DNA of 64,000 nt from Geosporobacter ferrireducens (GTDB taxonomy: Bacteria > Bacillota > Clostridia > Peptostreptococcales > Thermotaleaceae). The stretch spans positions 1,465,416 to 1,529,415 of the forward strand of contig NZ_CP017269.1 of the NCBI RefSeq assembly GCF_001750685.1, read 5' to 3'. Under the pieces are notes generated by a model. It was not told where the DNA came from. It made no database searches and saw nothing but the letters and a program-made list of their open reading frames with translations. Numbering within the stretch: position 1 is the first letter of the stretch; each line of letters opens with the position of its first letter. Shown in pieces: positions 1 through 58,785 of the stretch. The position numbers and the translations under genes are program-made.

Positions 1-386
1 GCACCGTGGGCCAGGGCCGGCATAGTAAGGGTTAATGTGGTGATACCAGGAGTTATCCCCATAAGCATATAAGATGGAATCGCAGCAGGAATCATTTCTG
101 TATAAATGAAAAAGTAGGCAATTAAAAAGCAGAAATAGAAAACAAATATGCCGTAGGCAACATAGATTTGCAGTTCTTTTTTTTGTTTCCATCGCAAAAT
201 TCCATAAAGGGTAAACCCTAAGCAAACAATCCCCAGCAAGCTCCCAAATACAGTCCAATGAAAAACTTGTTTTTCTGTAAATTCTGTATGTAAGAACCAA
301 AATATCCTTGCAAATATCCCCATCATTAACAACTGTGGAAGGGTTACCGTAAATAGGATAAAAAACGGATTATACAGCTTTTTCAT
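1..386 (-). CDS. polytopic membrane protein, partial (N-terminal part; C-terminus lies beyond window start)
   Basis: Reverse-strand ATG at 384-386 (cat) opens a hydrophobic reading frame MKKLYNPFFILFTVTLPQLLMMGIFARIFWF... that runs off the left edge. It is not in the ORF track because it is truncated. It overlaps the stop of the next gene by about 17 nt. Confidence 0.4.
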   Translation of the reverse strand, partial: MKKLYNPFFILFTVTLPQLLMMGIFARIFWFLHTEFTEKQVFHWTVFGSLLGIVCLGFTLYGILRWKQKKELQIYVAYGIFVFYFCFLIAYFFIYTEMIPAAIPSYMLMGITPGITTLTLTMPALAHG

Positions 387-939
387 ATTTTCCCTCTTTT
401 CTAATCAACTTTTCAAAAAGAACATAAATAATACATAGATAGATCCAGTAAAATAGTACCCCTATAGATTGATGGAGGAATCTTTCTGAAGTGGTACTTT
501 CAACAATAGCCAAATTCAAAATTCCTATAGCTGTAATAATTCTGGATGCATTGGCAAAAATTGTGATCCCATAGGAAAATAAGACAAAACCGAAAGTCAT
601 CATATACTTTTTCCCAATACTTTTCACCCTGGATACAAAGGAAAAACCTAGCATACAATAAACAGCAATCCAAAATCTGATACCAGAACATGCTTGATTG
701 ATCACCACATTTCCTTGTTGGCTCACAAATCCAAGATCCTGATCATAATAAAATCTAATTCCCAAAGCTTTTTCCACCAAAAATGCAACAGGTTTGATAA
801 TAAACAGCAAATCTTCTACAGACCCGTACCGGTAAAGCAAGTATAATCTAAAAGCAGCCCCAATCATACACAGATATAATACGACTAATGCTAACAGCCT
901 AGCTTTCTGTCTCTCCATCCTGTTCATTATCCCCCTCAC
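370..939 (-). CDS. polytopic membrane protein, possibly exosortase/archaeosortase-family (conserved Cys in ...NQACSGIRFW...)
   Basis: 189-aa ORF with several predicted TM helices. The ACSG-type cysteine motif plus downstream Arg/Asn-rich loops resemble the exosortase family. Family assignment is from memory only. Confidence 0.4.
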   Translation of the reverse strand: MRGIMNRMERQKARLLALVVLYLCMIGAAFRLYLLYRYGSVEDLLFIIKPVAFLVEKALGIRFYYDQDLGFVSQQGNVVINQACSGIRFWIAVYCMLGFSFVSRVKSIGKKYMMTFGFVLFSYGITIFANASRIITAIGILNLAIVESTTSERFLHQSIGVLFYWIYLCIIYVLFEKLIRKEGKYEKAV

Positions 940-1141
940 TTTCTACATACTCTAAAATATCTCCAGGCTGGCAGCGCAACTCTTTGCATATTGCCTCTAA
1001 AGTAGAGAAGCGAATAGCCTTTGCTTTATTATTTTTTAAAATAGATAAATTTGCAGGGGTAATCCCAATTCTATTGGCCAATTCCATGGCACCTATTTTG
1101 CGTTTGGCCATCATCACATCTAGATTGATAATAATTGCCAT
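899..1141 (-). CDS. XRE-family (Cro/C1-type) helix-turn-helix transcriptional regulator
   Basis: 80-aa ORF MAKRKIGAMELANRIGITPANLSILKNNKAKAIRFSTLEAICKELRCQPGDILEY is a classic HTH_3 fold. It sits immediately downstream of a DUF2975-type membrane gene, a known conserved pair. Confidence 0.8.
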   Translation of the reverse strand: MAIIINLDVMMAKRKIGAMELANRIGITPANLSILKNNKAKAIRFSTLEAICKELRCQPGDILEYVESEGDNEQDGETES

Positions 1142-1154
1142 GATACCCCTCCTT

Positions 1155-1625
1155 CTATATGGTATAGTCGTTCTCTACTTTTACTTCTACGGCTTTCCGA
1201 AAAACCTCTGCTAAAATAATTGAAAAAAATCCGGCAATCACAAAGATCATCAAAATAATAATGGTGAAAAAAGAATTTAGGAAGAATATTTTGGTTCCAT
1301 AACAAAACGCAATGGCAAAGGAAAATATGCCCATGTGCTTCAAACTCTTTACATTCTCTATGATGAAGGGATCTTTTCCATTTAATGTGTTAAATATCCT
1401 TCGGATTTCTCTTACAATGCCCAGGGCTAATATACCTGTAATTGCTAATAATCCAAGTAGAAAATAGTACATCCTTTCGTCCCTGCTGCCATGGACATGA
1501 GCCAGATACCATCGTACAGAGACAGGCAGTGAGAGCAGTATTCCAATCCCGCTAAGAAAGATTAAATCCAGTAAAATCTTTACAGCCGATGCCAGTGATT
1601 TCTCACCGATTATTTTCATTTTCAT
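1155..1625 (-). CDS. DUF2975-family membrane protein
   Basis: 156 aa, 4 TM segments, motif NGKDPFIIENVKSLKHMG typical of DUF2975. Paired with the XRE regulator. Confidence 0.65.
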   Translation of the reverse strand: MKMKIIGEKSLASAVKILLDLIFLSGIGILLSLPVSVRWYLAHVHGSRDERMYYFLLGLLAITGILALGIVREIRRIFNTLNGKDPFIIENVKSLKHMGIFSFAIAFCYGTKIFFLNSFFTIIILMIFVIAGFFSIILAEVFRKAVEVKVENDYTI

Positions 1626-1879: not shown

Positions 1880-3148
1880 CTAGGCTACTATCTTCACATT
1901 AGACCGATGCATTTTCACTTGCTCTTCAGGCGTGATTAAGACAAATGGATTCTCATTTTTAAGTACAGAAAATATGATCCTTACGAGTTTGTTCATCACT
2001 GCTCCTAAAGCTTGTTTTTTAGCTTTGATCTGTATCTTTTTGTGATAGTAGTCATAAATAACTTTGTTGACGTACTGCCCGTTAGGGTTTTGTCTAATGG
2101 CTACTGTGGCTGCAATATAGAGTGCCTTGCGAATAAATCTAGATCCTCCCTTTGTAAATTTATTCTTTGTCCCAATGAAGTTACCTGATTGTTTAACGGA
2201 TGGGTCAATGCCACAATAGGCTACAAGCTGCTTAGAACTTTGAAACCTTGCAATGCTTCCAATCTCTCCAGCTATGATAGGAGCTAGATTTTTACCTATA
2301 CCAGGAATACTACGAAGTAGCTGAATTGCAGGTATGTTGATTGCTAAAGCCTCTATCTTTTTATCTATCAAATCAAGTTGTTCATTAATATGCTTTAAAT
2401 GATTTGCATAGACAATGATGATTTGTTCATAGGCAGTTAATAGAATTCCAGTCTCCTTCCCTTCCTGTGCACTCTTCAGAATGAGTTCATATTTTTTCGT
2501 AGCATAGGCCATAGATGTTCTCGAGGTAGTTCTGACGATTTGAACAATATCATCTTTGGTTCCTTCTAGAAAAGATGTTGGAGACGGATAACGAACTAAT
2601 AATTCTAGGGATGTTTTACAGGAAATACTTTTAAAAACCTTTGTAAATCCGGGCATAACCTGTTCGATAGCAGCTTTTAACTGATTCATTACACTAACTC
2701 TTTGCTCTGAAAGATGATAATGGGTACGGGTTAATATCTTTAGGTTCTCAAGGTACTCATCCTGCATTTGATGTTCTTTTAAGTTCATAAAGAAGTACAT
2801 CTTTGCAAGTTCCTCAGCGTCTACCTTATCTGTTTTGACTTTCCTAACCGTGGAATTTTTGATAGAATGAGATAGGAGAGGGTTAATTAAATATACCTTC
2901 AAGTTATGGCGTGTGAAGAAGTGGACGAGGCGATTTGAATAGTGACCAGTGGATTCTAAGACGATTACTGGTTTCCTATTAAAGGCTTTCTCCACTTTTT
3001 CTATTTGGTTGATGACTGAAGCTAGTCCTTCTCCTGTGTTTAAAGCCTTAAATGGTTTGAGATAAGTTTCACCTGTTGGAGAAAGCGCAGCATAGTAGCA
3101 AAAGTCTTTTGCCACATCAGCCCCTATTACTGGAAATTCTCCTTTCAT
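1880..3148 (-). CDS. IS110-family transposase (DEDD_Tnp_IS110 N-domain + Transposase_20 C-domain)
   Basis: N-terminus MKGEFPVIGADVAKDFCYYAAL matches the VGIDVSK-type DEDD motif. C-terminus LLRSIPGIGKNLAPIIAGEIGSIARFQSSKQLVAYCGIDPSVKQSG matches the Transposase_20 signature. The track ORF extends to 3193; the likely true start is the MKGEF ATG at 3146-3148. Confidence 0.85.
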   Translation of the reverse strand: MKGEFPVIGADVAKDFCYYAALSPTGETYLKPFKALNTGEGLASVINQIEKVEKAFNRKPVIVLESTGHYSNRLVHFFTRHNLKVYLINPLLSHSIKNSTVRKVKTDKVDAEELAKMYFFMNLKEHQMQDEYLENLKILTRTHYHLSEQRVSVMNQLKAAIEQVMPGFTKVFKSISCKTSLELLVRYPSPTSFLEGTKDDIVQIVRTTSRTSMAYATKKYELILKSAQEGKETGILLTAYEQIIIVYANHLKHINEQLDLIDKKIEALAINIPAIQLLRSIPGIGKNLAPIIAGEIGSIARFQSSKQLVAYCGIDPSVKQSGNFIGTKNKFTKGGSRFIRKALYIAATVAIRQNPNGQYVNKVIYDYYHKKIQIKAKKQALGAVMNKLVRIIFSVLKNENPFVLITPEEQVKMHRSNVKIVA

Positions 3149-3760
3149 ATGAAATTCCTCCTTAGTATAGTTTTGGAGGATTATCCATTCCATTCCCTAG
3201 AGATTACAGCCTTGCGCGTTAAACGGGAATAAGTGATCCCAACCAGCCAAAACGTATATGCTTTTGAAATGGAATAATAGTCTGAATGTCGGGTATAGAA
3301 AATTCTTCCCTGGGACGGTTACATTTATATCCTTCAAAATGCATATACCCTTTTTGATGATTGTTCGGACTTTTAAAATCTTAAAATGAATAATCCTTCT
3401 AACTACATATTACAAGGGATGGTTCTTGAATTAAGGTCAATCTCCCTCAAAACTTGAGCCATAATTAATTATTATATTGAAAAAAACTACCCCTTCTATT
3501 TATAACAAAAGGAGTAGTAATCAGCTTTAATATTTTGGCCTTTTCCGTTTCTATATCAAGAACTCTAACACATAAGATTCCATAAAATAGACACTCTTCC
3601 TTTGTATGTTTTCGCTACTAACCAAAGGAAGAGCCTTTCCAAAACCCTATCCAAAAGTACCGCTACTTGTGGTAAGATTTACCGTATCAATTTTACAATT
3701 ACTAAGTTCCAAACTAAAAAATCTGATTTACTAAACGGATACTCAATGTTATTAATTCAT

Positions 3761-9884: not shown

Positions 9885-10340
9885 CTAATAAAAAAGTATC
9901 GAGAAAGATTCAGATTGGGCAGTCGGCAAGCGGAATGTGACAACGAAAGACGGACTATCGGCGTAAAGCTGATAACCCGTCTTTTGTATTTTGAGGGGTA
10001 GGGCAAAGCCGCGACACTCAAAATAGGGTTTCCAAAGGGGCACCCTTTGGCACACAACTTTGCGAATCAAAGTGTAGTGTGTTATACGCTCTGCCAGCGT
10101 TGCCGCCGGGGAGGGCAAGGGCGTTTGAAACGGCAGGAAAGCCGCCAATGACAGTCCGATTTCAGCAGCGGACAGGGCGTATATGAAGCCCCGTCTATCG
10201 TCTGAACTTCGGGACAAATTGGCCCAAAGTCCCGCAAGGTATCCAGAGGCGTCCCCCCTAGAACTCCGTCCGTGGAGCATATGCCCTATTCCTGTTCTTT
10301 GGAGGAGGCGCGGGGCAGGGCCCACTGCATAAACCAACCA
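9885..10340. other. GC-rich (>55% GC versus ~33% background) non-coding block with many GC stems; foreign origin; candidate structured RNA or intron/mobile-element fragment
   Basis: Sharp composition jump. Track ORFs across it (9885..10337, 9845..10057) give Ala/Arg/Gly/Pro-rich nonsense. Stems visible such as AGACGG...CCGTCT and CCAAAGGGGCACCCTTTGG. Confidence 0.4.
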
Positions 10341-10476: not shown

Positions 10477-11859
10477 CTAATTTAGCAACCTATCTGCCAT
10501 AGCTTCATCAAAAATTTCCGCCATATCAGACTGTTTACCATATTCGAAACCTATCCTTCCATCATATGTCATGGAATCACAGGAATCGGTAGCGATAAAT
10601 ACACGCAGAATTTCGCCGTCCTCGCGTGTGAACTTTATCGAAGCAATGTAAGGACAGCCGGAAAAACCGTATATCTCCTCGCTGTTTATCGCTCTATTCA
10701 TGAGCTTTGACAACGCATTGAGCTTTTCCGGAGTATTTACGGTCTGCGACCGCAAATCAGTGGTATAGGAGCCATCGGCTTGCTCTACACTTTCCGGAAA
10801 ATCAATACTGGCACTCTTGAGAGGAATTTTAAACCATTGTGCATCAAAGCTTCCGTAGTCTATTTCCATGACATTCTTTATTTTATCCATAACAAAGCTA
10901 TATACGGCTTCGTTGTATTCAAGGGCAATAAATCCCTGCTCATCCATAGTAGACATGATATAACCTGCTGAATTACTATTGCCCATAAACTCATATTGCT
11001 TCCCGTCTATATGCAGTCTGGCACCTGTTGAGCGTATGGAGCTGTCTTCTTCATGCAGATACTTCCATGCATCTTGTCGTGATTTTACATTATCTATACC
11101 CTCCGAAGATGAGAATAGGCTGCTAATTTCTTCGAGTTCATTGCCGCTTATGTTGATGAAACAGGAGTATGGCGATGAATAGAAATTTATGGTATCCTTG
11201 TCTTGATAATAAAATTCAATGCGGGGAGAATTTGCGCTATATAACGACAAACCTGCGTTTTTTCTAATAAAATCAAGCCGATCTCTTCCATTTTGCGTAA
11301 ATGCAAGAATGAATGTCTGATTTGCATATTCATCAGAGCTTTTGCTTTCACTGAAGCAAAAGCAGTCAAGGTTTTTATTCCCAAAAGGTAACTCAAGAAG
11401 ATCATAGCCTTCAAGCTCATATAGAATGTTTGAATCAATATCCTTATCGTAATAGCCGATTTGAAGAACTTCATTCTTTACACCGGCTTCTGAAAAATAT
11501 CCTATATCAATGCTGCTAAAATCATCATATACGGGAGCATCCTTACGTCGGACGGCCAAGTAATAATCCATGCCATCTCCTGCTGTTCGCCCTATGATAT
11601 CGTAATGTCCCATCAGCATATCAGATACTTGTTTTGTTCTGCTTTCGTCCATCTGCTGAAATGAAGCACCATCAATATAGCTTTCAACAAGAGCAATATA
11701 CTCTTCCAGCGGAGTAAGCGGCATTGGCTCCGGTGTTGCATTCATTGCCGTTGGAAATATGGAATCCGTATGCCTATCACTTTCAGAAGCTGGCCTCGTA
11801 CACGAAACTGTTAAAAGTGTAACAAATAGTAATATAGCAAATAAATACGTTTTTTTCAT
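10477..11859 (-). CDS. secreted lipoprotein of unknown function (cargo gene inside the GC-rich remnant)
   Basis: 460 aa. Signal peptide with lipobox LLTVSC. About 42% GC, intermediate between host and the flanking GC-rich blocks. No recognisable catalytic motif. Confidence 0.65.
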   Translation of the reverse strand: MKKTYLFAILLFVTLLTVSCTRPASESDRHTDSIFPTAMNATPEPMPLTPLEEYIALVESYIDGASFQQMDESRTKQVSDMLMGHYDIIGRTAGDGMDYYLAVRRKDAPVYDDFSSIDIGYFSEAGVKNEVLQIGYYDKDIDSNILYELEGYDLLELPFGNKNLDCFCFSESKSSDEYANQTFILAFTQNGRDRLDFIRKNAGLSLYSANSPRIEFYYQDKDTINFYSSPYSCFINISGNELEEISSLFSSSEGIDNVKSRQDAWKYLHEEDSSIRSTGARLHIDGKQYEFMGNSNSAGYIMSTMDEQGFIALEYNEAVYSFVMDKIKNVMEIDYGSFDAQWFKIPLKSASIDFPESVEQADGSYTTDLRSQTVNTPEKLNALSKLMNRAINSEEIYGFSGCPYIASIKFTREDGEILRVFIATDSCDSMTYDGRIGFEYGKQSDMAEIFDEAMADRLLN

Positions 11860-12064
11860 ATTTCAGGTACCTCCCAAATATAGATATGATTATTGAACTT
11901 TAACTGGCATGATGTGCTGCCAAGTATTTATTTTCCATACGATCTTACCAAATAAGTCCAAGCATTACAAGTTTATTTCCGCTTCTTCCTGCGTTTCCTC
12001 TTAGAAATATTCAAATGCTTGGATTTCGCCAATACCTTCATCAGCAATTGAAATTCCTCCGGTG

Positions 12065-12560
12065 TCAGCTTGGTATAATCAATCCCCAGTTGGCGGCTTC
12101 CAACAGCCGGATATGGGTATCCTCCCCGCCAGGCTGATACTTCTCCGTGATTTTCACCCTTGCCATATCCACCAGCGTATTCAGGTTTTGTATCTGCATA
12201 CGGGCAATGCCGTCCACATAAATCTCAATGTCAGCCAACAGCTTCACAAAGTCCTTATGCGCCGCCATCTCACAAAGCAGGCGGGTATTGATTTTCCTGC
12301 TTTTTAATAGCCCTAGCATTTCATCACTCAAATGTAGTTCCGCAAGGTCTGCATTTGGGTGATTTTTTGTTTCGGTCAGCTCTAACAGCTAATCAGCGGA
12401 CACGCCGTAGAATTTCGCCAGCGTCAAAATGCTGGTATGGCTGATGTCCTTGTAATCCTCTATTTCATAGTTTCCCAAAGCGGATTTTGAAATACCTGTC
12501 TGCTTCTCCAACTGCTCCAGCGTCAGGCTGTTTTCCAACCTTGTGGATATACGGAACGGG
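12065..12560 (-). pseudogene. XRE-family regulator of the Tn1549/CTn conjugative-transposon type, disrupted by an in-frame TAG (Tyr codon to stop)
   Basis: The reverse strand reads ...ENSLTLEQLEKQTGISKSALGNYEIEDYKDISHTSILTLAKFYGVSAD*LLELTETKNHPNADLAELHLSDEMLGLLKSRKINTRLLCEMAAHKDFVKLLADIEIYVDGIARMQIQNLNTLVDMARVKITEKYQPGGEDTHIRLL. The conserved FYGVSADYLL motif is interrupted by TAG. No ATG was found at the N-terminus. Confidence 0.6.
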
Positions 12561-12589
12561 CGGTCAAAAAAGTATACACTTGGATTAGT

Positions 12590-12850
12590 TCATCAGTGGA
12601 CAGCACAAGTGAATGACCGTTCGAAAGGGATCCCACCGCAGGAGAAGCACAGCCATGAACCGCACTTCGGGCCTCGTCGGCGCAAAGCCTCGTAGCTTTG
12701 TGGGGGCCCCAATACCCGAAGTGCGGGGACCGTGCTAATGTGGGGAAACGCCGCCATAAGGGGGCAGGAACGGCTTTCAGGGAAAACGGCAAAGGAACAG
12801 GAAAACGGCATAGCCAAAACTGACTATGCCGGGTGCTGTACAAATACTTC
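12590..12850. other. GC-rich palindromic/structured non-coding block (long hairpin CCGCACTTCGGG...CCCGAAGTGCGG and others)
   Basis: Seen directly. It is the highest-GC part of the window. Track ORFs 12523..12843 and 12593..12817 are composition artefacts. Confidence 0.35.
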
Positions 12851-13200
12851 TTTATTGGGGGCGTGCTAAAGGGATCACTGTTTTTATTTTAGTTTACTAA
12901 TCGTTTTTAACATACCTTAGACAGAAATTTCAATTATAGCTATTAGGGCCTCCTGCCGTAAAGTTTATCTGTTCTATGATAAGATTATTGTTACTGTATT
13001 TGTAATTTACAATGAAATATCCGATATAAGAACCATGAGTAAAGCGGAGGCTGATATTCACGCTTATTTTATTGTTTTCTACAAAATAACGTATTTCTTC
13101 ATTGTACGCTTGCCTTGTTTCATCAGCAGCGTCTCCTATCAACAGACATATAGCCAGTAAGCCGATTGCACTACCGGGCACAATTCTTTTTTCTCCCAAT

Positions 13201-28724: not shown

Positions 28725-28960
28725 AGTTGGATAGTGCGACCCAAAGATCCTTCACTCCATTTAGGATGACAATTCATCCTACGGACGACCACAGGTCGCC
28801 CCTACAATTTATTCTTAACGGTCCAGCACCGTAGGGGATGAAATCCCCTGCCGCCTTCAGGAAGGTGCTCAGACAGCTTTGCTGTCGTCGAAGGAAACCT
28901 AGGGTTTCCTAGCGAAAGCGTCCTAGACACTCTTTTTATAGGGAAAGATTTCCCTCATAA
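28725..28960. other. GC-rich structured element beginning GATAGTGCGAC (solo copy of the end sequence of the 58.3-kb MITE-like element)
   Basis: Its left end GTTGGATAGTGCGAC matches the GTAGAATAGTGCGAC inverted-repeat terminus at 58275. Internal GC hairpins (GGGGATGAAATCCCC etc.). Lies in a 900-bp non-coding leader of the WYL gene pair. Confidence 0.35.
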
Positions 28961-29161: not shown

Positions 29162-30403
29162 ATGGCAGGATATACGGAACTTATTAAAAATTTTGAAAAA
29201 ATTCGTTCCTTTACCAGGGACTTCTTTATCTATGGCTTCAAAGGAAGAGGCGATTTCGATGGACTTTCACCACGCACTTATGACAATGAGCGCAGACGGA
29301 TAGAAAGTTATCTTAGTGAACTGATTGTTAAAACCCATGATAGTAAAGGAAAAAGCATTTCAATATCCTCAAATACCATTGCAAAAACATCCAATCCACT
29401 TTTTAAAGTATGGCAAACCAAGTCTTTTACAAAAAAAGATTGCTTTCTTCACTTTGTAATTCTCGACATTTTTTCAAAGCATACAAGCTTAAGTGTAAGA
29501 GAAGTTGCTGAAATCATTAGTGATGATTATACTACAGCCTTCAGCGCCAGTGAGCCTATGGATACCATGACGATTCGCAATAAGCTTAAAGAGTATACCC
29601 AGCTCGGTATACTGGAAGGGAAAAAATCCGGCAAAACCCTGCATTATTCTTTGCCACCTAACCCACTTCATCGTCTCTCCCCTAAAACAAGTGAAAGCCT
29701 CAACATGGCTTTATCCTATTATAAAAACATTTTGCCGGGAGGCTTCATGGGTCATTCCATAAACAATGAGCAGGACAGTCCTTTTATCTATAAACAAATT
29801 TATTTTTCACAGACATTGGACGATGAAATTGTATTAAAACTGCTTGAGGCCATAGAGATGAAACGGATGGTCACGCTGACAATGATCCCTGCTAAAGGTG
29901 ATAGAAATAGAAAAAATCCTTGTGTTCCCATTCAGATTTTAAGCAATACAAAATCTGGAAGGCGTTATGCAGCTATATACCATGAGAACAGCAGGAAATT
30001 CTCCACAGTACGAATTGATTATATAAAGGACGTGGATTTTGGTGAAATCTGTCCTGAATTTGACAACCTTTTTAGGGACTATCAACTTCGTATGAAACAT
30101 TCTTTTTCAATTACCCCTCAAACGAAAGAAAAACTCCATAACCTAACTGTGCGTCTTCAAATAGATGAAGCTACCGAACAATATGTACTTGAACGTATTC
30201 GAAGAGAAGGTCAACATGGTACGCTTACGAAAATAGAAGATAATATTTTTGAATACAGTATAGGCATACCGGATAGTCTTGAAATGGTTCCATGGCTTAG
30301 AACATTTATTGGTCGTATTCTTCAGATTGAGGGCAGCGAGGCCCATATCATTTCACAGTTTAAAAGAGATATTCATGCTATGCTGGCAATGTATGAAGAC
30401 TGA
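29162..30403 (+). CDS. WYL-domain transcriptional regulator (wHTH - WYL - WCX architecture), long form
   Basis: WYL-like core RMVTLTMIPAKGDRNRKNPCVPIQILSNTKSGRRYAAIYHENSRKFSTVRIDYIKDV and a C-terminal WCX-like segment EMVPWLRTFIGRILQIEG. Confidence 0.6.
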   Translation: MAGYTELIKNFEKIRSFTRDFFIYGFKGRGDFDGLSPRTYDNERRRIESYLSELIVKTHDSKGKSISISSNTIAKTSNPLFKVWQTKSFTKKDCFLHFVILDIFSKHTSLSVREVAEIISDDYTTAFSASEPMDTMTIRNKLKEYTQLGILEGKKSGKTLHYSLPPNPLHRLSPKTSESLNMALSYYKNILPGGFMGHSINNEQDSPFIYKQIYFSQTLDDEIVLKLLEAIEMKRMVTLTMIPAKGDRNRKNPCVPIQILSNTKSGRRYAAIYHENSRKFSTVRIDYIKDVDFGEICPEFDNLFRDYQLRMKHSFSITPQTKEKLHNLTVRLQIDEATEQYVLERIRREGQHGTLTKIEDNIFEYSIGIPDSLEMVPWLRTFIGRILQIEGSEAHIISQFKRDIHAMLAMYED

Positions 30404-30436
30404 TATATGCCAATCTATTTTTAGAAGGTGTGAACG

Positions 30437-31420
30437 ATGGATAGTATCTATAATGAAATATATGGCTTGTACTATTGGATGTTAGAAAAAATACTTAAAA
30501 AAGCAATGTCGTCTGAGCTTACCCTGAAAGATATCCATGATATTGTTGCACAATATGGTTTTTCTGAAAGCAATCTATATTTTACCCCTGAGGTTATCGC
30601 TCAGGGAAAACAGGGATATAATCTGCTTAAAGAATCCGGCGCCGGTTATGCTTCTATTCTTCAGTCCAGTCCTGCAAAGCCCTTGACAAATTTGCAGAAG
30701 TCCTTTATAAAAAGTGTCCTTTCTGATAAAAAGATCCATTTGTTTTTTGACGAAGACATGCTTAAAGAAATCCATGAAGCCCTATGGGATACGGCTCCCC
30801 TTTTTAATGTGGATAACATTGCCTTTAAAGAAACTGCCTTGGATAGAGATGATTATGCCGATGAGAAATATATTTCTAATTTTAAGTGTATTCTTGGGGC
30901 AATAAGGGATAACCGGGCACTAAAAATCTGCTTTAACACTTCAAAGGGTGAGCGTAAGACAATGAAACTTGCGCCTTATAAACTGGAGTATGGAATTCGT
31001 GATGATAAGTTTCGCATATGTGGTATTCGCATACAGGAAGAAAAGGAAAATCTCTATGTGAAAATCAATCTTGCCAGAATCGTATCGATAACTGTGCTCA
31101 AGCAATCCTTTCTGTTGGATTATGAATCTTTCATCGCTGCCAAACGCAAAACAGAGCCTATTGAGATAGAGGTCTATAATCTTCGCAAAGGCTTCGAACG
31201 CGTGTTTATTGGCCTGTCCAATTATGAAAGAATCTCCAGCTTTCATGAAGAATCTGGTAAATGCAGTATTAAAATCTATTATACCGATGATGATGAGCAG
31301 GAGCTTTTAATTCTACTCCTTTCCTACGGACCTGCTATAAAAGTATTAGGTCCTCCAGATTTTAGAACCAAATTTATTGAAAGGGTACAAAAACAGTTCC
31401 ATATGTTCAATAGGCCCTAG
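30437..31420 (+). CDS. WYL-domain transcriptional regulator (second, tandem)
   Basis: WYL core KLAPYKLEYGIRDDKFRICGIRIQEEKENLYVKINLARIVSITVL and a classic WCX C-terminus ELLILLLSYGPAIKVLGPPDFRTKFIERV. Confidence 0.75.
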   Translation: MDSIYNEIYGLYYWMLEKILKKAMSSELTLKDIHDIVAQYGFSESNLYFTPEVIAQGKQGYNLLKESGAGYASILQSSPAKPLTNLQKSFIKSVLSDKKIHLFFDEDMLKEIHEALWDTAPLFNVDNIAFKETALDRDDYADEKYISNFKCILGAIRDNRALKICFNTSKGERKTMKLAPYKLEYGIRDDKFRICGIRIQEEKENLYVKINLARIVSITVLKQSFLLDYESFIAAKRKTEPIEIEVYNLRKGFERVFIGLSNYERISSFHEESGKCSIKIYYTDDDEQELLILLLSYGPAIKVLGPPDFRTKFIERVQKQFHMFNRP

Positions 31421-35889: not shown

Positions 35890-36253
35890 TTTTTTTTATT
35901 AAAGATGATTATTCTCAATTTATCAGTAAGCAAAAGTCCTCGACGATCATCCCCACACTCAATGGGTTCTATCCATTCTCATTGTTTTCTTTTCTCAGTT
36001 TTCAAACTTCGCCAGGTGCTCCACATGTATTATTTTTGAAAATTAAAGCAAACGCAACATTGATCAGGTCTCCTCAACTCTATGCAAAATGTCCAATATC
36101 AAGTTTGTTCACTTAACCCTATCCATTTTTATACCATAGATATTCTTTTCCACATTCAAAAATAAAGATTTCCAAGCACCAGTTCTTTTCTATCAGATAC
36201 TCATTCGGAAAGTCCCATGCTCGGAAACCCTATATTTCGAGCCTACTATTTAA

Positions 36254-37258
36254 TTAGCATATCCTGGGGAGCATATCTCCCTCAAGAGGCCCAACAATTC
36301 TCCTGCCCCCAATAACTGTTTCCATCACTACCTTTGGAAATAGTCCAGTGGAAAGAAAGCTACCAATGATTGCTGCATCTTCACAGTCTTCACATTGCCA
36401 AATTTCCTCTAGTACCGCTCTAGCCTTCTGCTTGTCAACCACAATGATCAGCCTGCCCTCACAGGCATGATATAGTGGGTCTAGTCCTAAAAGCTCATTG
36501 ATAGATTTCACTTCCACAGCTATCGGAATAGCCTCTTCTAATAGCTGAATTCCGCGTCCTGATGCCTCTAGGATTTCATTTAAGGCAGTTGCCAAACCTC
36601 CTCTGGTAGGATCCTTCATTAACTTAATACTTCCCATATATGTCTGAAGCTTTTCAAGAATATGATTTAATGGTCTACAATCGCTTTTTATATTTTCTTC
36701 TACTTTTATTCCATACCGTTCCACCGCTATGGTAGTGCCATGCTGGGCAATTCCCCCAGTGATAATAATTTGATCTCCCGCTTGAATGGGTTTTGGTTGA
36801 TACTGAGCCTGAACCACGCCTATTCCAGAAGTATTGATGAATACCCCATCTACTGAGCCTTTCTCCACCACCTTTGTATCTCCTGTGATTATTTTCACTC
36901 CTGTTTTTCTACAGGTCTCTCCGATGGAGGCTGCAATTCTCTCAAGCAGCTCCATATCAAAGCCCTCTTCAATGATAAAGCCACAGCTTAAATATAATGA
37001 TCTGGCTCCTGCTGCAACGAGATCATTTATGGTACCACAGACAGCTAATTTGCCAATGTTTCCCCCTGGAAACACCAGAGGCTTTACAACAAAGGAGTCT
37101 GTTGTAAAGGCCAGTCTCCCATGAATCCCATCAAATACAGATGCATCTAGAGAATTTACTAACATATCGTTATGAAAATGCTTATAAAAGATATCCTTGA
37201 TCAGTATGCTTGTATGTTTTCCTCCGTCTCCATGGCGGAGCATCACTGTTTTTTCCAT
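36254..37258 (-). CDS. hypE: [NiFe]-hydrogenase maturation factor HypE (carbamoyl dehydratase)
   Basis: AIR-synthase-like fold: LRHGDGGKHTS N-terminus and C-terminal PRIC. Start MEKTV at 37258, one nt after the hypD stop. Confidence 0.9.
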   Translation of the reverse strand: MEKTVMLRHGDGGKHTSILIKDIFYKHFHNDMLVNSLDASVFDGIHGRLAFTTDSFVVKPLVFPGGNIGKLAVCGTINDLVAAGARSLYLSCGFIIEEGFDMELLERIAASIGETCRKTGVKIITGDTKVVEKGSVDGVFINTSGIGVVQAQYQPKPIQAGDQIIITGGIAQHGTTIAVERYGIKVEENIKSDCRPLNHILEKLQTYMGSIKLMKDPTRGGLATALNEILEASGRGIQLLEEAIPIAVEVKSINELLGLDPLYHACEGRLIIVVDKQKARAVLEEIWQCEDCEDAAIIGSFLSTGLFPKVVMETVIGGRRIVGPLEGDMLPRIC

Positions 37259-37259
37259 T

Positions 37260-38354
37260 CTACACTTCCTCCCCATACCGATAGTCAATGGAACAAGCCC
37301 CCTCTGTAGACACCATACAAGGCCCCTGAGGGCTCATTGGGTTACATCCTTTCTTAAAAAGCTTACATTCCCTCGGTGTCTTCTTTCCCAGTAAAATATC
37401 CTTACAATCACAGCCCATACTGACTTTTACCTGTTGATTTTCTAGCACAAATACCTTTCTTGCATCAAATCTAGCATATTTTTCTTTAATCTGTAGAGAA
37501 GAGTTTTCTATGTTACCAATTCCCCGCCACTCTCCATCTAAAATATTGAATACCTCATCTATCAACAGATTGGCAGTGGTATTCCCTTGAGGGCTTACAC
37601 ATCTTTTATATAGATTTTGAAAGGCGTCTTCTTTCCCTTGGGTGATCTGCTTCACCAGATAATATATCCCTGCTACAATGTCAACAGCTTCAAATCCACA
37701 TACGGCAGCTGGAACATGGTACTTCCTATTTATAAACTTAAAATAATCAGATCCCTTAATCGTAGCCACATGGCCTGGACAGATAAATCCATGGATCTGA
37801 TTGTTAGATTCCTTTAAAATATAATGCAGGATTGGTGCCATTAGCTTGAGGGAGGTAAGGAAATATAGGTTATCAATGCCCCTCTCCGCAGCCGTTTTAG
37901 TTGCTAAAGCTATAATAGGAGCTGTAGTTTCAAAACCTACCCCTAGAAAAACAATTTGTTTTCCTCTGTACTTTTCTGCTATATCAATGATGTCTAAAGG
38001 TGAATAAATTATCCTGACATCCTTCCCCTTCCCCTTTTCCTCCAGCAGGCTTCCCTTTCTTCCCCTCACTTTCATCAAGTCTCCAAAGGTAACCACTGTT
38101 ACATTATATCTATTTAAAATCTCTATAGCCCAGTCAATATACCTTTCTTCCGTTACACAGACAGGGCATCCTGGACCTGATAAAAGCTTTATTTTGGAGG
38201 ATAACAGCGTTCTTAGCCCCAGCTTAGCAATCATCTGAGTGTGGGTACCACAGACCTCCATAATCTTTATTTCTTCTGTGACCATGGAATTCACCTCATT
38301 GATTAGGTTGGTTAACAAATCCTTATCTATATCTATCTTCCTTCTCATTTCCAT
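37260..38354 (-). CDS. hypD: [NiFe]-hydrogenase maturation factor HypD
   Basis: Motifs MEVCGTHT, GPGCPVCV and FxCPGH. Start region overlaps the hypC end. Confidence 0.9.
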   Translation of the reverse strand: MEMRRKIDIDKDLLTNLINEVNSMVTEEIKIMEVCGTHTQMIAKLGLRTLLSSKIKLLSGPGCPVCVTEERYIDWAIEILNRYNVTVVTFGDLMKVRGRKGSLLEEKGKGKDVRIIYSPLDIIDIAEKYRGKQIVFLGVGFETTAPIIALATKTAAERGIDNLYFLTSLKLMAPILHYILKESNNQIHGFICPGHVATIKGSDYFKFINRKYHVPAAVCGFEAVDIVAGIYYLVKQITQGKEDAFQNLYKRCVSPQGNTTANLLIDEVFNILDGEWRGIGNIENSSLQIKEKYARFDARKVFVLENQQVKVSMGCDCKDILLGKKTPRECKLFKKGCNPMSPQGPCMVSTEGACSIDYRYGEEV

Positions 38355-57897: not shown

Positions 57898-58274
57898 ATT
57901 GATATCACAAAGCAAAGGAAGTGCAAAATAACACTTCCTTTGACAGCGCCTAATTACATATAAAAGAATCCACATTTACCATACGTGTTCCGATAAACAA
58001 GAAAGCGCGTGATGAAATGAAAAGAGTAATTTTGCTCAAATTTTTTTGTTAGCGATACTGCTATTATAGTCTCCTCAATGGAACGAGCTCTCATAACTGC
58101 TGAGAGCTCTATATTATAAAGAGGGGGATAACCTCATAAATACAGTTTAAAACAAGATTATGAATAAACTATGAACAAACTATGAAGAATTTATCATTTT
58201 TTGTAAAATAAAAAATCAAGGGTATGTTTAAGAAAGTGGTTGAAAATGATATATCCTTATAAAGTTATTTTGCA

Positions 58275-58540
58275 ATTGTAGAATAGTGCGACATACAGGG
58301 GAACACCACAGGGAGTGTTCCATGCATCACATACCGACAGGCTGTTATTTCCTGTAGGGGAGAACATTGTTCTCCCGATGCATATCATTAGCGGGCGCAC
58401 ACTGTGCGCCCCTACATTGTCTCCCACATAAGGATAGCGGTAGGGGCAGACCTGTGTGTCTGCCCAAAGAGACGGCAAAATTAACGGGTGGACACATAGG
58501 TCCACACTCCACCAATATGTCGCACTAATCTACCTATGCG
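58275..58540. mobile_element. MITE-like non-autonomous element with 18-bp terminal inverted repeats (GTAGAATAGTGCGACATA ... TATGTCGCACTAATCTAC) and an internal array of GC hairpins
   Basis: Seen directly. GC-rich. Internal hairpins GGGAGAACATTGTTCTCCC, GGGCGCACACTGTGCGCCC, GGCAGACCTGTGTGTCTGCC and GTGGACACATAGGTCCAC. The ORF 58257..58505 across it is Cys/Pro/Gly-rich nonsense. Confidence 0.5.
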
Positions 58541-58785
58541 CTATATGATTAATCTCTGATATCATAGAAAAAAAAGTAATAGGATAGAATGAAAGAGACT
58601 GGCAAGGAAAATATATCATCACAAGTAAGTATATCTAGAAGACAAACGAATCGTCCCCACAAGTCCTACATTGTATATTTAAATAGGAAATAAATTACAT
58701 TTTCTCTATTGACTGTACTTGCATCAATGGATAAACTAGATACAAAGAATTATAATCGACTATCCTATCTATTAAAACGGAGGTA

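Follow-up and report, generated by a model that had tools for sequence, protein, structure and literature searches.

The 256-bp intergenic element at 58.3 kb of the Geosporobacter ferrireducens window (the whole 64-kb stretch of DNA that was analyzed) is probably a BIME-like structure, in which four GTAG-tagged, GC-rich units are arranged in two REPIN-like doublets and, together with an extra hairpin, are bracketed by an 18-bp inverted repeat (Table 1). We place the interior among the REP/BIME-type clusters with high confidence, and we regard the complete element, with moderate confidence, as a REP array and not as a MITE or an RNA gene. Repeats of this type are well known from bacteria but have rarely been described in this host group.

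Table 1. Positions of the repeat features in the window and, in the last five rows, of an element in metagenome-assembled genomes (MAGs). R1 is the covariance model of the REP-type unit.
Feature	Position	Strand	Remarks
Cluster with inverted ends, G. ferrireducens, 64-kb window	58278-58533		256 bp, arm outer end to arm outer end
Left arm GTAGAATAGTGCGACATA	58278-58295	+	starts with GTAG; 18-bp inverted repeat
Right arm TATGTCGCACTAATCTAC	58516-58533	-	ends with CTAC; 18-bp inverted repeat
Hairpin A (GGAACAC-N8-GTGTTCC)	58300-58321	.	not recognized by R1; without GTAG tag; unclassified
REP-type unit B: GTAG + GGGAGAACA T TGTTCTCCC	58354-58376	+	hairpin 58358-58376; R1 58350-58380, 16.6 bits, E = 0.0013
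REP-type unit C, inverted: GGGCGCACA C TGTGCGCCC + CTAC	58393-58415	-	hairpin 58393-58411; R1 58389-58419, 28.1 bits, E = 9e-8
REP-type unit D: GTAGGGGCAGACCTGTGTGTCTGCCC	58440-58465	+	hairpin 58444-58465; R1 58436-58469, 44.1 bits, E = 1.6e-13
Decayed inverted unit E: GGGTGGACACATAGGTCCACAC	58486-58510	-	hairpin 58489-58506; R1 partial 58490-58503, 16.4 bits, E = 0.0015
Head motif GTTGGATAGTGCGAC	28725-28740	+	shares ATAGTGCGAC and 16/20 nt with left arm
Weaker GTAG hairpin adjoining the GTAGGGGCGACCTGTGGTCGTCC unit	28764-28782	-	
REP-type unit GTAGGGGCGACCTGTGGTCGTCC	28783-28805	-	R1 28779-28809, 14.7 bits, E = 0.006
Clostridiales-2 RNA (Rfam RF02937)	28817-28898	+	69.1 bits vs gathering score 58.6
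First hairpin of Clostridiales-2, GTAG-tagged unit	28831-28848	+	R1 28827-28852, 11.0 bits, E = 0.13
Alphaproteobacteria MAG element, L001	~320-540	-	
Alphaproteobacteria MAG element, L003	~1090-1310	-	
Alphaproteobacteria MAG element, L004	~1160-1380	+	
Alphaproteobacteria MAG element, L113			
Alphaproteobacteria MAG element, L115			

The element lies in an intergenic gap of 940 bp, which has a small ORF or a gene for an RNaseH-like DUF protein on one side and an alpha/beta hydrolase gene on the other. Terminator-like hairpins are located to its left (57913-57942 and 58085-58109), and promoter-like sites of the hydrolase to its right (58709-58756). The GC content is 53.2% in the interior and 51.2% over the whole element, compared with 37.1% in the window and 29–30% in the flanks. 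Hence, the initial annotation was correct in giving the interior more than 50% GC, while its background value of about 33% matches neither the window nor the flanks. Its length of 266 bp described a real element but took in a few flanking bases. An 82-aa ORF spans the element, and a protein search with it gave no candidate, so the element is neither a conserved small gene nor one widely mis-called as such. ARAGORN reported no tRNA or tmRNA. The closest homologue of the hydrolase (68% identity) is non-syntenic and is not accompanied by the element. Taken alone, the 58.3-kb locus is ordinary, and it probably affects its neighbors little.

The rest of the window contains ordinary chromosomal genes, including those for TRAP and ABC transporters, NiFe hydrogenase maturation, and regulators. 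An IS110-family RNA-guided (bridge-RNA type) transposase gene is present at 1880-3193 on the minus strand (NCBIfam NF033542, 229 bits). In some species, REP sequences are the targets of IS110-family elements; the flanks of this gene showed no REP remnant. A 460-aa ORF at 10477-11859 on the minus strand has no Pfam or NCBIfam match. On either side of it, the stretches 9885-10340 and 12560-12870 have at least 50% GC, are apparently non-coding, and have no Rfam match, and the stretch 11990-12560 resembles remnants of higher-GC genes. This region may be a foreign or mobile segment.

Between the arms of the 58.3-kb element there are five hairpins, referred to as A to E, with stems of 6–9 bp (8–9 bp in units B, C, and D). 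The array had been described earlier as four hairpins with stems of 7–9 bp; the array itself is real and the loop forms given for it, ACAYTGT and CTGTGTG, are roughly right, but the diagnostic GTAG/CTAC tag on the hairpins had been overlooked. Specifically, GTAG at 58354 and 58440 directly adjoins hairpins B and D, respectively, and CTAC at 58412-58415 directly adjoins hairpin C. Read from left to right, the element consists of an arm, hairpin A, units B (+), C (-), D (+), and the decayed E (-), and the second arm. The orientation of the units thus alternates as + - + - over 58354-58510, and B-C and D-E are head-to-head doublets with GTAG outside. Unit E still has the family consensus at the tip of its hairpin but has lost the base of the stem and the CTAC tag. 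A simple finder of GTAG-tagged hairpins returned seven units in the window, where 1.6 were expected (maximum 4), and these concentrate at the two loci. Another GTAG-tagged hairpin, GTAGGCTCGAAATATAGGGTTTCCGAGC, is located at 36219-36246 on the minus strand, just downstream of an AIR-synthase-related gene (36254-37288); R1 does not recognize this hairpin, which is probably an ordinary terminator.

The units are members of a widespread extragenic hairpin family, the stems of which are kept by compensatory changes and the members of which usually form GTAG-outside doublets. IMG/VR was scanned with the pattern GTAGGGGCNNACCYRTGTGTNNGCCC, and the unit consensus GTAGGGGC-NN-ACC-YRTGTGT-N'N'-GCCC occurs in 89 viral-contig stretches (L014-L102) with GC contents from 35 to 71%. 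The free stem positions form two pairs, which are Watson-Crick in 120 of the 129 matches and use six or more different combinations. In alignment A3, composed of 98 sequences, 98.6% of the cells are paired, and pairing is destroyed when the partner columns are slid. The alignment contains 55 double-sided changes compared with 10.7 in shuffles, and none of 500 shuffles reaches 55. As six of the pairs were already set by the search pattern, this covariation evidence applies to the remaining two alone. Further variants of stem and loop that follow GTAGGGG in the same viral loci stay palindromic. Adjacent unit pairs in the fetched loci and the window are mostly GTAG-outside (53 of 85), with 14 GTAG-inside and 18 in tandem. 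The units avoid ORFs, as 40% of them fall within an ORF mask whose coverage is 84%, and an ORF 3' end lies no more than 60 nt away for 59 of the 129 units. The neighbors of viral units are ordinary phage genes without a recurrent partner. Some viral contigs carry tandem unit arrays, namely a doublet that recurs every 110 bp in L101 (2419-3066) and head-to-tail arrays of half units in L014 (936-1057) and L048 (379-496), which are BIME-like expansions.

The model R1 was trained on the viral-contig units alone and run unfiltered over the whole window. It returned hits with E < 0.2 only at B, C, D, and E and at two units of the 28.7-kb locus, a total of six units at two loci. Unit D has a 26-nt identity, found by BLASTN, with a unit on a Calditerrivibrio plasmid, where the latter and an inverted partner make up a GTAG-outside doublet. 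Plasmids of Haliovirga, Persicobacter, and Phocaeicola carry near-identical units. The plasmid hosts of the unit (L009-L013, L110-L112) belong to Deferribacterota, Fusobacteriota, and Bacteroidota, some stretches of 26–30 nt are identical between phyla, and the plasmids examined carry the unit in low copy.

REP/BIME repeats are tied to IS200/IS605-type Y1 tyrosine transposases (RAYTs), and classical REPs are lineage-specific and present in hundreds per genome. The signature of a REP is a GTAG followed by a GC-rich palindrome (PMC2817692, PMC3733652), and GTAG REPs are defined by stems of 6–13 bp, an unpaired GTAG, and head-to-head or tail-to-tail dimers and clusters (PMC3733652). The 58.3-kb units are likewise GC-rich imperfect palindromes, of 23–26 bp with stems of 8–9 bp and an unpaired GTAG at the end; they lie outside genes in alternating clusters with head-to-head and tail-to-tail dimers, their stems are kept by compensatory changes, and they resemble known REP sequences such as GTAGGGTGGGCTTCAGCCCACC (PMC2817692). 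Three features set them apart from the described REP/BIMEs. The host is a Firmicute of the class Clostridia, the unit is near-identical across several phyla and many phage contigs instead of being lineage-specific, and a non-palindromic 18-bp terminal inverted repeat, which lies outside the classical REP/BIME definition, encloses the cluster. Aside from the bracket, the position of hairpin A outside the unit model and the spread of the family over phyla and phages at low plasmid copy number count against the assignment. A survey of GTAG repeats in 2013 covered only Proteobacteria, Cyanobacteria, Chloroflexi, and PVC and left phages unmentioned (PMC3733652), and Group 1 RAYTs have been reported in Clostridia (PMC5581495).

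The doublets invite comparison with REPINs (Bertels and Rainey; PMC3116915, PMC3337134). As in REPINs, inverted unit pairs with a short spacer dominate, and B-C and D-E are such pairs. Different from REPINs, the halves of the doublets here often differ in stem, and they therefore fold as two hairpins and not as one long one. For the arm bracket, the nearest precedent is provided by TIRtrons/TIRYT, whose long terminal inverted repeats bear no relation to the REP hairpins. Such long inverted repeats accompany tyrosine transposases and form moderately abundant or small families with dimers and clusters like those of REPs, and some TIRtron/TIRYT families are chimeras of degenerate GTAG units and other stem-loops (PMC3733652). 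In contrast to these, the arms here have no tyrosine transposase gene between them or in their vicinity, and no family of such arms emerged from the collections scanned. We found no RAYT or other Y1 gene in the window, near the units of the 89 viral loci, or beside any other unit in the fetched loci, a result that weighs against the REP-array reading. In L026, a 1.1-kb segment is flanked by units oriented as expected around a RAYT gene; its 346-aa ORF has no Y1-transposase match. No RAYT is annotated in 150 kb of the Haliovirga plasmid or in 50 kb of the Calditerrivibrio plasmid, and none of the IS200/IS605 copies on the latter adjoins a unit.

The 28.7-kb locus represents another member, which differs in composition and shares the head motif and the type of units. 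An exact copy of ATAGTGCGAC occupies 28731-28740, with a 16/20 match to the left end of the 58.3-kb element around it, and no partner arm is present. In this respect, the initial annotation was accurate in reporting a second locus that begins with the same end and lacks the partner repeat. Its description as a solo end captured the shared head and overlooked the tagged units and the Clostridiales-2 RNA within. By itself, the 10-mer head is not significant, as it has four matches in the window at no more than one mismatch against 1.6 expected. The link between the loci appears credible because the head stands 60–90 nt from the sole other REP-unit cluster in the 64 kb. Taken together, the 10-nt head and two or three GTAG-tagged units are common to both loci. 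The first hairpin of the Clostridiales-2 RNA is itself a GTAG-tagged GC hairpin like the 58.3-kb units, and two more tagged hairpins lie upstream of it on the other strand, so part of this RNA family may be repeat-derived. The 58.3-kb element differs in that the stretch 58150-58650 has no match to the Clostridiales-2 model even at E <= 10. In viral contigs, the Clostridiales-2 consensus pattern gave chance matches in coding DNA only. Two ORFs are located at 29162-31420 on the plus strand, which had been annotated as a WYL pair. This label has weak support from the second ORF, which scores 23.2 bits for WCX, just under the cut-off of 23.9, and E = 0.025 for WYL, and none from the first (413 aa), which has no family match.

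We then weighed the reading as a true MITE, which we consider unlikely. In such a case, the arms would be the ends for a DDE (or other) transposase encoded elsewhere, the hairpins would be cargo or later insertions, and the 28.7-kb head would be a solo end. The arms are complementary at 17 of 18 positions (94%) with a spacing of 220 nt, in agreement with the single mismatch noted initially. At up to three mismatches, the 18-mer occurs in the window at these two sites alone against 0.04 expected, an inverted repeat far above chance. Like MITEs, the element is small, non-coding, and intergenic, and its terminal inverted repeats enable it to fold into a long stem-loop; the recurrence of the head at 28.7 kb, about 60–90 nt from REP-type units there too, also fits. 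However, no direct repeat of at least 3 nt flanks the arms at boundary shifts from 0 to 7, so no target-site duplication is present, as expected for Y1-type elements. The window's sole transposase, that of the IS110 family, has unrelated ends, and no transposase gene adjoins the element.

Searches with the arms offer no support for a MITE either. The 18-mer, with one degenerate position, has seven single matches among one genome each of 185,579 species, a set to which the source genome does not belong, five single matches in JGI metagenomes, and none in IMG/VR. A second copy of the arm pair at the right spacing is absent from the species genomes, the JGI metagenomes, and IMG/VR, the source genome being outside these sets. 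When both loci were compared with plasmids and phages by BLASTN, single hairpins only and no arm were matched, and no autonomous IS or transposase with such ends was found in any collection scanned. Hence, the MITE-like label survives insofar as the element is non-coding, of repeat type, and probably once mobile; as a classical MITE, it lacks a duplication and, in the collections scanned, a second copy and a transposase with these ends.

Most arm matches elsewhere are due to chance or to an unrelated structured element of gut Alphaproteobacteria MAGs. The latter, about 190 nt long, is conserved and structured and occurs in multiple copies in low-GC MAGs labeled Alphaproteobacteria; it is often near contig ends and has no Rfam match. 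It carries the identical 18-mer GTAGAATAGTGCGACATA in a loop closed by GGCTGGAAG/CTTCCAGCC, and its sharing of this 18-mer with the window arm is probably a coincidence. Only one arm match, in a Clostridiales MAG with 51% GC (L005), has an extended likeness to the left end of the window element. Positions 184-209 of this contig and 58268-58295 of the window share TTTGCA(A)TTGTAGAATAGTGCGACATA, i.e., 26–27 nt, at about 130 nt upstream of a gene start and 190 nt from the contig end. The match may represent a promoter or operator common to both, or else a solo end from the same family of elements. As a copy of part of the left end close to a contig end, it speaks for the MITE reading, but the likeness runs 9 nt beyond the arm and halts at the arm's inner edge, unlike what a transposon end would give.

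A structured non-coding RNA, i.e., an sRNA or a cis-acting 5'/3' element that is closed by the arms and functionally akin to Clostridiales-2, with which it would share the 5' head, is quite improbable. The predicted fold is multi-branched, with five hairpins enclosed by an 18-bp stem, and is very stable (-121.7 kcal/mol, z = -8.8). An RNA would also fit the position of the element as a GC island amid AT-rich intergenic DNA, the presence of a bona fide Rfam family at the sister locus, and the similar placement of the shared head in both loci. The two strands nevertheless fold equally well, both with much greater stability than shuffled controls (RNA z = -8.8 and -7.3, DNA z = -7.2), each into a multi-branched structure closed by the arms, as expected of DNA palindromes. 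Furthermore, the element has no Rfam match even at E <= 10, no convincing plus-strand promoter upstream, and no intrinsic terminator with a T run after it, and the same hairpins occur in unrelated phage and plasmid contexts. Searches of the above collections, which do not include the source genome, returned no homologue of the element as a whole, so that covariation support does not extend beyond the individual REP-type hairpins.

The initial annotation had also likened the array to the omega-RNA/reRNA right ends of IS200/IS605 elements. The likeness is an indirect family link alone, via the tie of REPs to IS200/IS605-type Y1 transposases, and in this spirit the proposed link holds for the interior hairpins, which are of the REP class. 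The RNA part of the comparison has no support. No tnpB or iscB gene is adjacent, the neighbors instead encoding the RNaseH-like DUF protein and the alpha/beta hydrolase; the strands fold alike; and no known RNA family is matched. A retron msr-msd was set aside, as no RT domain is encoded in the neighboring ORFs, and the readings as attC, group II intron, and sigma-factor promoter were dropped, the defining neighbor gene or motif being absent.

It is highly improbable that a regulatory DNA site (a -10 element TAGAAT or an operator) is what the left arm and the 28.7-kb head have in common. In this reading, the right arm would be an inverted copy due to chance or duplication, and the GC hairpins would be unrelated, terminator-like structures. 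TAGAAT is present in the left arm, which also overlaps the imperfect 20-bp palindrome TATTTTGCAATTGTAGAATA, and the 27-nt match in L005 has a position typical of a promoter, but the promoter scan of the plus strand did not yield an acceptable -35/-10 pair at this site, the sequence TGGATA in the 28.7-kb head is a poor -10, and both the 17/18 inverted partner and the GTAG-tagged hairpin family are left unexplained. The palindrome spans 58266-58285, with symmetry at 16 of its 20 positions, and extends into the outer edge of the left arm. A promoter-like site on the minus strand, TTGCAA-18-TATCAT at 58275-58246, is directed away from the element.

For the favored reading as a REP array, known REP/RAYT biology (PMC2817692, PMC3479197, PMC8266576, PMC3116915) suggests how the cluster may have arisen. 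A RAYT-type HUH/Y1 transposase, with its gene at another place in the genome, would copy the units in the form of single-stranded DNA hairpins and may recognize the hairpin plus the GTAG tetranucleotide, and the array may have grown by repeated insertion beside existing units. Its present-day role may be passive or may be exerted via RNA stability, termination, or DNA topology. As the cluster lies between terminator-like hairpins and promoter-like sites of the hydrolase, it is most likely a DNA-level passenger. If read-through transcription arrives, the cluster would form a stable multi-hairpin RNA block that could act as a 3'-end stabilizer or insulator, as proposed for REP/BIMEs.

A bolder proposal, which we consider speculative and rather doubtful, is that the GTAGGGGC hairpin represents a horizontally spreading REP lineage that phages and plasmids carry across at least five phyla. 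In Geosporobacter, it would be packed with the GTAG-starting 18-bp inverted repeat as a 'REP-carrying TIR element' mobilized by a TIRYT/RAYT-type tyrosine transposase, the 58.3-kb copy being intact and the 28.7-kb copy being rearranged and fused to Clostridiales-2. If true, such a lineage would run against the prevailing picture of REPs and REPINs as lineage-specific and vertically inherited.

The analysis turns an anonymous 'MITE-like' feature into a member of a recognizable class, the tagged palindromes of REP/BIME type, and extends this class to a Clostridia genome. Less ordinary are the wide spread of the unit over phyla and phage contigs and the possible overlap with the Clostridiales-2 motif. 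For annotation, it is a warning that such GC islands, possibly including part of the Clostridiales-2 motif, may be DNA-level repeats and not RNA genes. If a unit-flanked RAYT gene exists in Geosporobacter, it would offer a handle on REP biology in Firmicutes and would bear on the horizontal movement of some REP lineages with phages.
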